A stretch of DNA of 32,000 nucleotides from Candidatus Baldrarchaeum yapensis (lineage in GTDB: Archaea; Asgardarchaeota; Baldrarchaeia; Baldrarchaeales; Baldrarchaeaceae): the NCBI GenBank assembly GCA_016840465.1, contig JAEOSH010000014.1, positions 1 through 32,000 of the forward strand. The letters are read 5' to 3'. Under the pieces are notes generated by a model. That model was not told where the DNA came from and made no database searches. It worked only from the letters and a program-made list of their open reading frames with translations. Below are positions 5,668-13,891 of the stretch, piece by piece; within the stretch, counting starts at the first letter, position 1; every line of letters starts with the position of its first letter. A program made the position numbers and the translations under genes.

Positions 5668-6354
5668 ATGAGCGTCAGCGTCATAATTCCGACTTACAAA
5701 ACAGATCCGACACTTCTAGAAAAGACGCTAAGATCCATTCCAAGGAAGGTCGGCGATGCGGAGGTCGAAATAGTAATTGCGACAGAAAAAGATGATAGAA
5801 ATGCGTTCAGCATCGCTGAAAAATTTCGAGTGAGGGCGATTGCTCCGGAAAGACGGCTAGGAAAGGGTCATGCTATGGAAACAGCGTTCAACGAGTGCGA
5901 AGGAGAGTTGATAGTGTTCTTCGATGCCGACATAAAGAATGTAAACGAGGACATGATGAGATCCCTGATCATCCCCCTCATTGAGGGAGCGGAGGTCACA
6001 AGAGCAAAATACGAATATCAAGGAAACATGAACTTCGACCCTGTTAGCGAACTCGTTGCCCGTCCACTCTTATCGCTGTTCTTCCCCGAAATCAGGGTTA
6101 AGCAACCCCTCACCGGACTATCGGGTTATAAGAGATATGTGCTCGAGAGGTGCCTGCCCTTCGAGAAAGGATGGGGCGTCGATGTGGGCCTGCTGATAGA
6201 TGTAACGATGAAGGCCTGTGAGATTGTGGAGGTGGATATAGGGGTCATTGAACACGAGTTCAAGCCTTGGGAGGAGCAGTTCAAGGTTGCACACGAGGTC
6301 GCTAGGACAATCCTGAGAAAGGCGGTAGCGTACGCAAGAATATACTTCATATGA
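5668..6354 (+). CDS. gpgS: Glucosyl-3-phosphoglycerate synthase-like GT-A glycosyltransferase
   Basis: VSVIIPTY start, GKGHAM, DxD motif FFDADI, ELVARPLLSLFFPEI..KQPLTG, PFEKGWGVDVGLLID resembling GpgS/MpgS. ATG 5668 follows GGTGAGG. Donor and acceptor specificity not determinable. Confidence 0.75.
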   Translation: MSVSVIIPTYKTDPTLLEKTLRSIPRKVGDAEVEIVIATEKDDRNAFSIAEKFRVRAIAPERRLGKGHAMETAFNECEGELIVFFDADIKNVNEDMMRSLIIPLIEGAEVTRAKYEYQGNMNFDPVSELVARPLLSLFFPEIRVKQPLTGLSGYKRYVLERCLPFEKGWGVDVGLLIDVTMKACEIVEVDIGVIEHEFKPWEEQFKVAHEVARTILRKAVAYARIYFI

Positions 6355-6688
6355 AGGCAAAGGCGTATAGCAGCATGTCGGCAAACTCTCTGTCCATCAC
6401 GAGCCAAATCTGTAGCAAGGGGTCATACTTCGCCTCCTTGATCATCGGAATTCTGAAATCGGAGAAAAAAGATGGAAGAAAAGCCTGATGGATCACAACA
6501 GTATCGCTATTCCTCCCGCTCCATGAGACTCTTCCTGACCGGAGATGCCTCAATGTGAGGTCGTACAGTATGCAGTCCCTCATGGAAACGTGGACGCCAA
6601 TTTCGTTCCTGAATGCACATATTCTCAGCAACCCTCTCTTGATGACATCGAAAATATCGAAAATGAAGGTGTGCAGAGCGTCTTGCAA
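6347..6688 (-). CDS. Possible small hypothetical protein
   Basis: 113-aa ORF (TTG start; ATG alternatives) filling the gap between gpgS and ade. Its stop overlaps the gpgS stop by 8 bp. No motif recognised. Confidence 0.35.
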   Translation of the reverse strand: MQDALHTFIFDIFDVIKRGLLRICAFRNEIGVHVSMRDCILYDLTLRHLRSGRVSWSGRNSDTVVIHQAFLPSFFSDFRIPMIKEAKYDPLLQIWLVMDREFADMLLYAFAFI

Positions 6689-8832: not shown

Positions 8833-9309
8833 TCAATCCAGAAGGGGATCAACTTGTACCCTTACCGGAATTCCAGCGCGCACACTCTCGGTAACCGTGC
8901 AGTACTTCTCAAAGATACCAATGCACCTCTCAAGCTTGTGCCTATATTTCTCCTTAATCCTCGGTCTTAGAGTGACGTTCACCTCCTTCACCCTAAGAAA
9001 GCCCTCCTCGTTCCGTGCAACCGTGCCCGAAACCTCTGCACTTATGTCCTCGATCTCAACCCGATGTATCATGAGACAGTAGGCGAGGGAAGCAATCAGA
9101 CAACCGGCAATCGACGCCGCAAGGAGCCTTGTCGCGTTTACTCCTGCTCCTTCACTTAGCGGATGATGGGGCGGCTCATCCATGTGCAGTTCGTGCCCGG
9201 TGTCAAACTCAACCTTAAATTTCAGCTTCCCGGCCCACTTTATCGAAAAGGTGAAAACGCCTCCCTCATACCGATGCCGGATCCGTCCAGATGATCCGTC
9301 CGCTCGCAT
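8833..9309 (-). CDS. OsmC/Ohr-like family protein
   Basis: DEPP..GEGAGVNATRLLAASIAGCLIASL and KYCTVTES contain the two conserved Cys. ATG 9309 is the likely start; ORF is open to 9372. Confidence 0.88.
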   Translation of the reverse strand: MRADGSSGRIRHRYEGGVFTFSIKWAGKLKFKVEFDTGHELHMDEPPHHPLSEGAGVNATRLLAASIAGCLIASLAYCLMIHRVEIEDISAEVSGTVARNEEGFLRVKEVNVTLRPRIKEKYRHKLERCIGIFEKYCTVTESVRAGIPVRVQVDPLLD

Positions 9310-11954: not shown

Positions 11955-12782
11955 TCAGTCGTTGGTGGGCTTTGAGGGGAATCTTATTTCAGCGGCGGGC
12001 ATATGGTACATCATTCCCTCTTCGTACTTGCCCTCGATCACTATTCCCTTGCTCTTAAGTTTTTTTAGTATGGCGATGGCCTCGTCCACCGTTTTGAACA
12101 TGTGGGGCAATCTTATCATGATGTCGGTCGGCGTGAGCCTCCCTCCCATTTCATAGAAGAGGCGAACAACCTCCAGCTCCTTGGTTGAGAGTTCCAGCCC
12201 AGGGGAGACGTAGAGATTATCCCCTATCTTCTTCAAATAGCCTCGCTTCACGAGTTTCTTTAGCACGAGGTTTATGTCGTCAGATGTCACCAGTTTCCCG
12301 TCTATTTCACCGATGTCAACCAGTATCCTTCCAGGGGAGATGACATTCCCATACCTGTACGCCAGCTCCAAGATCCTCTGTTCAAGGAGGGTGTAGAATC
12401 GCTTCTTGAGCCTTCTACCCTCCAATATCCTGCGCAGAAGCCCCATTTTCTTACTATTCTCCTCTGTGGACACCTGCACTTTGGGCATTTCCTTCGCTTC
12501 CTTCTCCAATTTTACCTCTTCGCGCCTCTCCACTTCAGTAGGCTTTTCTTCCTCACTCTCTCTCATTCTCTCTTCACTTGTGCCCTCCTTTGGTATTTGG
12601 AACGCTGGCGGCTGTATTAGCGGTGGTAAAACGTGAGGAATTGGCGGTTGTTGCATATAAGGCCATCTATGGTGTTGCCATCTGAACCATAGAGGTGGTG
12701 GCAACCATCGAGGCGGTGGGAAAGCGCGCCTGCGCGTCTTTCCTCTACGGAACCTAAACCTGCGCCACATGGGGTTCACCAT
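11955..12782 (-). CDS. Tandem winged-helix protein resembling ESCRT-II subunits (EAP30/Vps22-Vps36-like), with an Arg/Pro/Trp-rich N-terminus and a Glu/Lys-rich linker
   Basis: 275 aa from ATG 12782. WH1: FYTLLEQRILEL..GNVIS..VTSDDINLVLKKLVKRG. WH2: ELSTKELEVVRL..GGRLTPTDI..DEAIAILKKLKSKG..YHMP. The CDS is secure; the ESCRT-II assignment comes from by-eye alignment with recalled Vps22/Vps25 sequences. Confidence 0.6.
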   Translation of the reverse strand: MVNPMWRRFRFRRGKTRRRAFPPPRWLPPPLWFRWQHHRWPYMQQPPIPHVLPPLIQPPAFQIPKEGTSEERMRESEEEKPTEVERREEVKLEKEAKEMPKVQVSTEENSKKMGLLRRILEGRRLKKRFYTLLEQRILELAYRYGNVISPGRILVDIGEIDGKLVTSDDINLVLKKLVKRGYLKKIGDNLYVSPGLELSTKELEVVRLFYEMGGRLTPTDIMIRLPHMFKTVDEAIAILKKLKSKGIVIEGKYEEGMMYHMPAAEIRFPSKPTND

Positions 12783-12806
12783 TTTTGAGATATTGCACAA
12801 AATATC

Positions 12807-12821
12807 TTTATAAGTTTTCGA
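12807..12821 (-). promoter_or_regulatory. BRE/TATA promoter for a probably leaderless transcript of the tandem-WH gene
   Basis: Minus strand reads cGAAAAc-TTATAAA, centred about 28 nt upstream of ATG 12782. No RBS before the ATG. Confidence 0.6.
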
Positions 12822-13050
12822 TTACGTGATGATGAGGGTCATGCATCTACTGACATATTACGTATTTTGGTACAAAAAATTGTATATGCGAATTATTCGG
12901 TTGCATCTTTGTGAATTTTCGTAAAATGGATGTTTTGAGGCGTTTGCATCCGGTCACTTGACAAACGTGAGAAACGTTGAGAACAATCACGCAACTTCCG
13001 ATAAATTTGGAGATTCCCTGTATTCATGCTTTACAGATCCTTCGGATGTG

Positions 13051-13145
13051 GCTCGGGGGTTGCCCCGAAAGGGGGCGAGCCCGGAAAGGGTGATGTGCCC
13101 CAAGGCGGATGTTTGCTCACTAATGCGGGCATCCGCTGAACCCCT
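13051..13145 (+). ncRNA. Candidate structured non-coding RNA, family not recognised
   Basis: 62/95 GC versus 67/180 GC in 12841-13020. Closing stem GGGGGTT/AACCCCT, two GC hairpins with GAAA-containing loops, and a 12-bp stem (13105-13116/13125-13136) with three U-G pairs that indicate the + strand. Confidence 0.55.
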
Positions 13146-13190
13146 CAATTCAGATAATGCATGAGTAATCTCGCAGTCTGGGATCCGAAA

Positions 13191-13553
13191 TTAAAGTTTA
13201 GTTTCTTCCTCTTCGCCCTCCTCCTCTTTCAAGAAGTACCTAACTTCTCTTCTGATCCTTTTCTTCGTGACCTTACCCATTCTGAAGAGTTCATTAAGAA
13301 TTCCGGAAGCGTGGCTTCGAGAGATTTGAAGCCTCTGTGCGAGTTCCCTTGCGGTTACGCCCTCAGGAATGTTCTTTAACTCCTTCAGCGCCAGTGAGAG
13401 TAGGGACTCGACGTCAGCCCTTCCTCCACGGATTACCATCAACTCCTCTCTTCTCTCTATCCTTTCCCTCATTAGGCTACACAGTTCCTCCAGCGTGGAT
13501 TTCAACTCCTCCAAGATCCTCTCTATCCGCTCAAGCCTTTCCTCGACGGACAT
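13191..13553 (-). CDS. Coiled-coil plus winged-helix DNA-binding protein (putative transcriptional regulator)
   Basis: Heptad-rich N-terminus (VEERLERIERILEELKSTLEEL), wHTH GVTARELAQRLQISRSHASGILNELFRMGKVTKKRIRREVRYFL, acidic tail. ATG 13553 follows GGTGA; other ATGs at 13559 and 13565. Confidence 0.85.
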   Translation of the reverse strand: MSVEERLERIERILEELKSTLEELCSLMRERIERREELMVIRGGRADVESLLSLALKELKNIPEGVTARELAQRLQISRSHASGILNELFRMGKVTKKRIRREVRYFLKEEEGEEEETKL

Positions 13554-13617
13554 CGCCATCACCATTTCTTCGACACCGACAACATCAAATAGAAGGACAT
13601 CCTGAGGGATATAAAAT

Positions 13618-13637
13618 TTTCTGATGATCATCAGAAA
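13618..13637. promoter_or_regulatory. Perfect 20-bp palindrome over the BRE of the wHTH gene promoter, candidate operator
   Basis: TTTCTGATGATCATCAGAAA, next to a minus-strand TATA (TTTTATAT, 13609-13616). Confidence 0.65.
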
Positions 13638-13891
13638 CAACAATCTGACAGTCTGCTCCCGCGGGTTCTGTCATGTTTTCAGTCTTTCCATCAGCAGGTC
13701 AACGTACCGCTCCGGTTGTGCCTCCCTTTCTATTATTAAAACTCCGAATAAGTCCCCGAACCTCGCATGAGGATCTTGGGGTCCTCGGTCTCTATAAGGA
13801 ACGTCCTCTCGGCAGGCACTGCTCACGATGCTTATGAGGGAGGAGAGAAACTCGGGCGTTACTACAAGTAAAAAGTAAGGAATTGGACTGG

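Follow-up and report, generated by a model that had tools for sequence, protein, structure and literature searches.

The structured island and its surroundings

The window analysed here is a stretch of 32,000 nucleotides from Candidatus Baldrarchaeum yapensis (contig JAEOSH010000014.1, positions 1 to 32,000 of the forward strand). Two of its open reading frames, 11955-12800 and 13191-13643, both on the minus strand, enclose a spacer with a GC-rich island, which lies ~235 nt upstream of the start of the former and ~45 nt downstream of the stop of the latter. The island occupies the 5′ intergenic region of the divergent Vps22-like ESCRT-II paralogue gene, while the frame on its other side encodes a 150-aa winged-helix protein with sub-threshold matches (winged-helix MarR_2, 4.6e-5, TrmB and IclR; EAP30/Vps36, E 1e-3). 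The G+C fraction is 0.64 across 13050-13149 compared with 0.30-0.43 in the surrounding spacer, and the plus strand of 13040-13160 folds at a calculated –53.5 kcal/mol with z = –2.5 relative to dinucleotide shuffles, whereas by the same reference the minus strand is unremarkable (z = –0.9).

An initial annotation, made from the letters of the sequence, had described a GC-rich island with a strand-specific, multi-branched structure, a candidate RNA transcribed opposite to both flanking genes. The base composition (64% against 30-43%), the difference between the two z-scores, the conservation of the fold in 66 homologues and the minus-strand orientation of both neighbours next to a plus-strand element all agree with that description, and each of the four helices it listed is present in the window and conserved in the same 66 homologues. 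Its limits have to be revised, as the element begins at ~13036 and not at 13051, and ends at 13144 rather than near 13145. Likewise, the closing helix holds for 13056-13061/13139-13144 but not for the additional G13055-U13145 pair, which lies partly beyond the end of the repeat at 13144, and the terminal hairpin does contain three U-G pairs that can form on the plus strand only but is 13 bp long instead of 12. The features of the locus are:

13000..13008 (+): TATA-like A/T-rich string GATAAATTT, ~30 nt upstream of the element, recognised by eye only
13036..13144 (+): truncated tnpB 3′ end plus transposon right end, type 1, from homology and the 99.1-bit score with covariance model R1
13037..13047 (+): small 5′ hairpin AUCC-UUC-GGAU over the NLR codons of tnpB, predicted in the minimum free energy (MFE) fold
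13050..13139 (+): remains of tnpB, its last 29 codons and the stop (TGA at 13137-13139), from tblastn
13056..13061 (+): 5′ strand of helix P1, GGGGUU, with its partner at 13139-13144, from RNAalifold and pair counts
13063..13074 (+): hairpin A, CCCC-GAAA-GGGG, from pair counts
13075-13077/13094-13096 and 13079-13082/13088-13091 (+): helix 3 and hairpin B with loop GGAAA, from pair counts
13097..13103 (+): single-stranded junction GCCCCAA, with columns nearly invariant in alignment A1
13104-13116/13125-13137 (+): terminal 13-bp hairpin with three U-G pairs and loop 13117-13124, from pair counts
13139..13144 (+): 3′ strand of P1, AACCCC, and right-end boundary of the element, after which all copies diverge
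13145..13164 (+): position that a guide would occupy, flank DNA TCAATTCAGATAATGCATGA, placed by known architecture (PMC10097598, PMC10691335)

All 30 pairs of the consensus structure can form in the window sequence, at –46.4 kcal/mol versus –53.5 kcal/mol for the MFE fold. The small hairpin at 13037-13047 comprises the first homologous bases of the window copy and its CCUUCGG is kept in type-1 copies, and the GCCCCAA junction (13097-13103) also codes for a conserved SQG/PQG. The second GCCCC (13097-13101), put forward in the initial annotation as a competitor for GGGGC, is part of this junction. The string GATAAATTT could drive a plus-strand transcript; it is not significant in the AT-rich spacer DNA and has no homologue in the other copies, and such a promoter is possibly fortuitous.

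The initial annotation had recognised no known RNA family by eye, and the Rfam comparison is in line with this. Rfam 15 gave no match at gathering score over the whole window, chance-level matches only (E 3.9-7.8, including RAGATH-11 at E = 6) at a permissive threshold over 12800-13400, and nothing covering the element in three homologous loci (L049, L057 and L031). ARAGORN found no tRNA or tmRNA.

Copies of the element and the 3′ end of tnpB

The island is not a single-copy sequence. Searching the organism's own 2.27-Mb assembly (100 contigs, 96% complete) by BLAST with 13030-13160 and with R1 yielded eight copies, among them those on contigs C27, C80, C16 and C52, which by BLAST are 84-91% identical to the window copy, and 3′-half copies on C6 and C96; the R1 score of 99.1 bits places the window copy among the best of the type-1 copies. 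A degenerate pattern of the terminal hairpin matched 21 stretches in GTDB species genomes, belonging to Asgard, Archaeoglobaceae, Desulfurococcaceae and Methanobacteriota MAGs as well as unclassified archaeal MAGs, and a hairpin A pattern matched more than 120 JGI metagenome contigs. The initial annotation had favoured an independent RNA of unrecognised family and had itself named a dispersed DNA repeat as the observation that would count against this; such a repeat was looked for and found, and with eight copies in its own genome, more than 120 matching public contigs and an overlap with tnpB the proposal of an independent RNA does not hold.

Ca. Asgardarchaeum abyssi (G008) carries about seven gene-less copies of ~245 nt that are similar in their 3′ half. 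These elements (e.g. L031:165-~410 (–), L032, L033, L035, L036 and L043) form a sister subfamily of ~245 nt with a sharp left boundary, GCCYTCCGAAACAGTTAAATATTTT, which contains a TATA-like box, a right end in ...GAACCCC and a covarying 9-bp stem, GCARUGUCC/GGACAYYGC, in their 5′ part.

In the copies on C27 and C80 the TnpB zinc ribbon (Pfam Cas12f1-like_TNB) directly adjoins the element. The open frame on C27 contains ...CKKCGSVLDRDVVAVLNLRMWG..., runs across the element and terminates with the TGA of GCUGAACCCC, reading in full ...CKKCGSVLDRDVVAVLNLRMWGLGAAPKGGEPEKGDAPQGGCPLTNVDIR*, and the tail encoded in the window is 76% identical to this C-terminal TnpB fragment over 29 aa (13050-13136, tblastn E 3e-8). 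We then surveyed tnpB open reading frames in the 86 unique copies pooled from all sources, counting 380 aa or more as long. A frame of 391-446 aa ends inside the terminal GCUGAACCCC in 18 of the 86, with TGA as the stop in 14 and TAA in 4, while 9 copies are cut by contig ends, 56 have a short frame or none and 3 have frames of intermediate length. OrfB_IS605 and Cas12f1-like_TNB were both detected in all three of the frames scanned (L057, 400 aa; L046, 446 aa; L049, 415 aa). At the right end, ...GAACCCC is common to all copies, and the bases right after it differ and similarity ceases, which in the window is at 13144. Since a tnpB frame runs through the element and similarity ends at GAACCCC, the element represents the 3′ end of tnpB together with the right end of the transposon. 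It is made up of the last ~30-45 tnpB codons, the stop and the transposon right end, that is, the omega RNA (reRNA) scaffold, where the omega RNA label is a putative one given by position and analogy to a family that has no curated Rfam model.

The relatives differ in what accompanies tnpB. In the type-2 loci L046 and L049 an IS607-type serine recombinase-like ORF precedes it (confirmed as Pfam Resolvase for L049), and type-1 elements such as L057 have no transposase beside tnpB and are in this respect IS1341-like. A search for a Y1 transposase returned no PF01797 match in the 96%-complete own assembly. An IS200/IS605 element moved by Y1 TnpA was considered and rejected, given the absence of a PF01797 match and the Resolvase-domain ORF in type-2 relatives.

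Several other TnpB-related features were observed in this genome. In C55 (L065:106-2277) and C96 (L064:129-2221, –) a type-2 tnpB is split by an ORF with LAGLIDADG/HTH domains. The insert in C55 encodes 257 aa with a LAGLIDADG_3 match at E 2.6e-21; it begins on the stop of a 371-aa N-terminal part of tnpB, and behind it come the zinc-finger/RuvC-III part and the omega RNA tail. The insert in C96 is a 212-aa HTH ORF with a weak LAGLIDADG_3 match, located between the ...NLYLRM and MWGF codons. This insertion point coincides with the start of the omega RNA tail and with the junction where the homology of the window copy begins, and both inserts may stem from the invasion of tnpB by a homing-endonuclease gene. 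Solo remnants of the TnpB C terminus make up a second family, which occurs in 13 places (C28, C27:9262-9453, C57, C55:10106-10225, C89, C39, C92, C11, C71, C82, C69 and twice in C76), each 49-78% identical to residues ~340-400 of a reference, the 437-aa TnpB at C96:26819-28129. Finally, C48:~8870-9236 joined to C27:11264-11023 (–) holds a tnpB remnant consisting of the last ~70 codons with mutated zinc-finger cysteines, in frame behind an ORF that by eye resembles an aspartic protease, and the sequence of this junction is found again in metagenome contig L115.

Conservation of the RNA fold

The initial annotation had suggested collecting homologues and testing them for covariation, and we did so with alignment A1, which holds 66 non-identical copies and was built with MAFFT, and is thus not fitted to any structure. 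RNAalifold applied to A1 recovers P1, hairpin A, helix 3 with a variable hairpin B, and the terminal hairpin. Over 27 pairs 96.7% of the cells in the 66 sequences are paired, and 12 of the pairs show compensatory changes. Changes on both sides of a pair occur in 149 cells compared to 44 ± 8 in shuffles, with none of 500 shuffles reaching the observed value, and the covariation score of 0.300 compares with at most 0.114 when the partners are slid by 1-3 columns and is likewise reached by 0 of 500 shuffles.

The helices contribute unequally to this signal. P1 (13056-13061/13139-13144) is paired in 99.5% of its cells with columns that are almost invariant, and hence carries no covariation signal, and hairpin A is paired in 99.2% with C-G to U-G as the sole changes; covariation can therefore confirm neither of the two. 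Helix 3 with hairpin B (94.6% of cells paired) shows compensatory changes in 4 of 7 pairs and the terminal hairpin (95.6%) in 8 of its 10 counted pairs. Other subfamilies have the apical hairpin B swapped for stems that are 15-40 nt longer, a pattern characteristic of RNA helices rather than of protein-coding constraint. Part of the sequence conservation is explained by the conserved protein tail that the element also encodes. The frequent G-U pairs in A1 columns (e.g. 50-102, 52-99 and 112-145) would become C-A mismatches on the opposite strand, which places the structure on the tnpB-sense (+) strand. The window copy is a member of this family and has its conserved fold. The alternative pairing GCUCG/CGAGC (13051-13055/13076-13080) to which the initial annotation pointed does exist in the window copy and is part of its own MFE fold, but it is not a conserved switch. 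With 38.9% of the family's cells paired, it was rejected as a family feature both in the form of a switch and in that of a true (stem-1-type) pseudoknot.

For comparison, the omega RNA of ISDra2 from Deinococcus radiodurans overlaps tnpB to position –10 and its functional scaffold extends from –116 to –1 (~116 nt), with a pseudoknot in which –6..–2 pairs with –102..–106 and a hairpin just 5′ of the upstream segment (PMC10097598). As in ISDra2, the scaffold of the family described here sits at the 3′ end of tnpB, overlaps the coding sequence of the C-terminal tail, ends at the right end with the flank in the position of the guide, and measures ~110-140 nt. Both also have a terminal hairpin followed by a short 3′ strand; in ISDra2 this strand makes the pseudoknot, in the family it is predicted to pair likewise, with a segment ~85-100 nt upstream, and the ORF stops shortly before the end (–10 in ISDra2, –8..–6 here). 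By analogy, P1 would match the guide-proximal pseudoknot helix of ISDra2, and the terminal hairpin at 13104-13137 may be the counterpart of stem 4 of its omega RNA. In contrast to ISDra2, the family shares no sequence similarity with it, has no Rfam model and is hosted by archaea of several phyla. Its predicted long-range helix closes a nested four-way junction, whereas that of ISDra2 is placed in the stem 1 loop; the stem needed for a true ISDra2-like pseudoknot is not conserved, and the window copy itself lacks tnpB.

Elements of the IS607 family with tnpA (serine recombinase) and tnpB have a reRNA as well, e.g. a RAGATH-18-derived one (PMC11061315), and the type-2 relatives, with their 415-446 aa TnpB following a Resolvase-domain ORF, resemble them. 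However, no RAGATH model matched at E up to 1 in the loci of three relatives, and around the island none did at E up to 10 save the chance-level RAGATH-11 (E = 6). In archaea, ncRNA transcripts overlapping the 3′ ends of IS1341-type tnpB genes in sense have been described (Gomes-Filho 2015, as cited in PMC10097598), and circular omega RNAs occur (PMC12558985).

Origin and state of the window copy

Homology between the window copy and the others starts at ~13036, at the NLRMWG codons. Upstream of this position tblastn with four TnpB proteins found no tnpB remnant, so that the last 29 codons are all that is left, and BLAST of 12801-13060 gave nothing beyond chance against the genome and the G008 elements, the 235 nt left of 13036 being unique in the genome. 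Alignments of this flank to the left ends of G008, L118 and L129 do no better than chance, with 177, 469 and 494 of the 500 shuffles scoring as well, and a left-end resemblance seen by eye, CTTCCGA...TAAAT, was dropped because of it. With a unique left flank and no upstream tnpB the copy is therefore a solo, 5′-truncated right end and not a complete mini-element, an assignment that its 109 nt of homology suggest. The window copy also lacks the covarying two-tier upstream hairpin that the gene-less type-1 derivatives L118 and L129 retain. Elsewhere this hairpin lies in the zinc-finger CxxC coding region, ~145-190 nt before the right end (L057:~6340-6385, L074 and L121), and takes the form CCUGYCCNN...NNGGRCAGG around GGCAG-AUUAU-CUGCC, GGUCGC-AUG-GCGACC and similar. 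Since the gene-less L118 and L129 keep it, this hairpin probably belongs to the omega RNA as a 5′ module.

The would-be guide at 13145-13164 has no second full match in the genome, only chance 14-15-mers, as expected for a guide derived from the flank. The other four type-1 copies of the genome are decayed or cut by contig ends, and this assembly holds no fully assembled intact type-1 tnpB. On contig C88 (4721-5305) a frame that is open to the contig end is 67% identical to residues 17-218 of the L057 TnpB, and in view of this half the real genome may contain an intact type-1 tnpB that was not assembled. Given this type-1 half and the two type-2 tnpB genes of the genome that have the same 3′ core, a partner nuclease is possible.

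We consider it highly probable (roughly 0.9) that 13036-13144 is the solo relic of the right end of an IS605/IS607-superfamily TnpB element, carrying its omega RNA scaffold. On this reading the segment spans the last ~30 tnpB codons, the stop and the 4-5 nt that separate it from the right end. When the element is intact, transcription of this piece would run in the sense of tnpB, and the RNA is predicted to fold into a junction of four helices, which GGGGUU/AACCCC closes directly in front of the guide. If the mechanism described in the literature applies, TnpB would bind the scaffold, the flanking DNA beyond ...GAACCCC would act as the guide and the nuclease would cut matching TAM-flanked sites, aiding persistence of the transposon. 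The copy in the window would have lost tnpB and the left end, becoming a solo relic.

What could make the island a host feature instead is its lack of an Rfam match, its strong strand-specific structure and the presence of the strings GUGAUG and CUGA, in which the initial annotation had seen a resemblance to C and D boxes. The strings are there, but their pattern of variation contradicts the resemblance. CUGA is the context of the tnpB stop codon, and it is replaced in 14 of the 66 homologues, in 8 by CUAA, where the stop is kept and the GA lost, and in 6 by CCGA or UCGA, all of them copies without a long ORF; the stop itself is kept in 18 of 18 intact ORFs. UGAUG supplies the 3′ side of helix 3, which has a small internal loop, and the column pair 50-102 is GU in 55 sequences of A1 and AU in 11; the change from G to A at column 50 thus leaves the pairing with U102 in place, as fits a Watson-Crick/wobble pair and not a sheared G-A pair. 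Of the features of an archaeal box C/D sRNA, neither C′/D′ boxes nor a C/D model match were found on the element. Considering also that in intact copies the sequence is the terminus of a multicopy mobile element inside the tnpB ORF, an independent host small RNA of a new family, be it box C/D-like, a riboswitch or a ribozyme, is scarcely credible. The hairpins could also act in the DNA, as single-stranded right-end signals read by a transposase. The ends of IS200/IS605 elements have subterminal top-strand hairpins, and DNA hairpins of this sort tolerate G-T pairs; the terminal hairpin here, ~8 nt from the end, would fit this type. Nevertheless, the genome yielded no Y1 transposase, the serine recombinase of the IS607 type carried by type-2 relatives uses no hairpin ends, and a junction of four helices that covaries and includes a GNRA loop as well as a long-range helix exceeds what a transposase hairpin would call for, leaving this reading with very little to recommend it.

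Accepting the omega RNA scaffold, the window copy could still be a working stand-alone gene, expressed from GATAAATTT as promoter, served by TnpB in trans and guided by 13145-~13164. Its core is intact, at 99.1 bits and with all consensus pairs formable, and the 109 nt retained correspond in extent to the functional ISDra2 scaffold (–116..–1) and its overlap with the coding sequence of the C-terminal domain (–109..–10). Moreover, stand-alone omega RNAs that act in trans are known (PMC10691335), 56 of the 86 unique copies of the family lack a long ORF, and candidate partners exist in the type-2 TnpB proteins with the same 3′ core and the open N-terminal half of a type-1 tnpB on C88. The stand-alone omega RNAs of OMEGA systems, mobilised units in the account of Altae-Tran et al. 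(2021) given in PMC10691335, share with the window copy a scaffold with a flank guide, no adjacent nuclease or transposase and TnpB genes in the genome, but the window copy, unlike these, has no recognisable left end and looks like a deletion relic. Against a working gene, the TATA-like string is not significant and is absent from the other copies, the covarying upstream hairpin of gene-less type-1 derivatives is missing, no further target of the guide was found in the genome and the other four type-1 copies are decayed or truncated by contig ends; we regard it as unlikely. A complete miniature non-autonomous element of the MITE/PATE kind would need a promoter and an omega RNA between a left and a right end. 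PATE/MITE derivatives of IS200/IS605 keep their ends and a structured RNA without genes. The 245-nt sister elements of Ca. Asgardarchaeum abyssi have a TTAAATATTTT box ~44 nt before the ATGTGG codons, and in the window ATAAATTT is similarly spaced. However, the flank to the left of 13036 is unique, no second copy has the same left part, the left-end alignments do not rise above chance, and the presence of both ends, repeated as a unit between different flanks, was found for the G008 copies and not for the window copy, which makes this reading very improbable. There is also only a slim chance that the relic has been kept by the host as a promoter-driven orphan guide RNA, which a surviving or nuclease-dead TnpB would take up in trans and which would act on DNA or expression near the Vps22-like ESCRT-II paralogue gene; if this were true, an Asgard archaeon would be using an omega RNA for regulation in the manner of TldR.

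With the solo relic as the preferred reading, the island should be annotated as the remnant of a TnpB/omega RNA transposon and not as a new host RNA, so that mobile-element debris lies in the ~390-bp spacer upstream of the Vps22-like paralogue. Both stand-alone omega RNAs and IS605/IS607 derivatives without genes have been described before (PMC10691335), and the general picture of how TnpB systems function is unchanged. What A1 and R1 define is a family of omega RNA scaffolds for which Rfam has no entry. It is common to TnpB elements, both IS607-like and IS1341-like, from hydrothermal archaea of several phyla, and most of its copies are gene-less. R1 could be used to mask such elements in screens for Asgard ncRNAs, and the family supplies ready scaffolds for tests of thermophilic archaeal TnpB.
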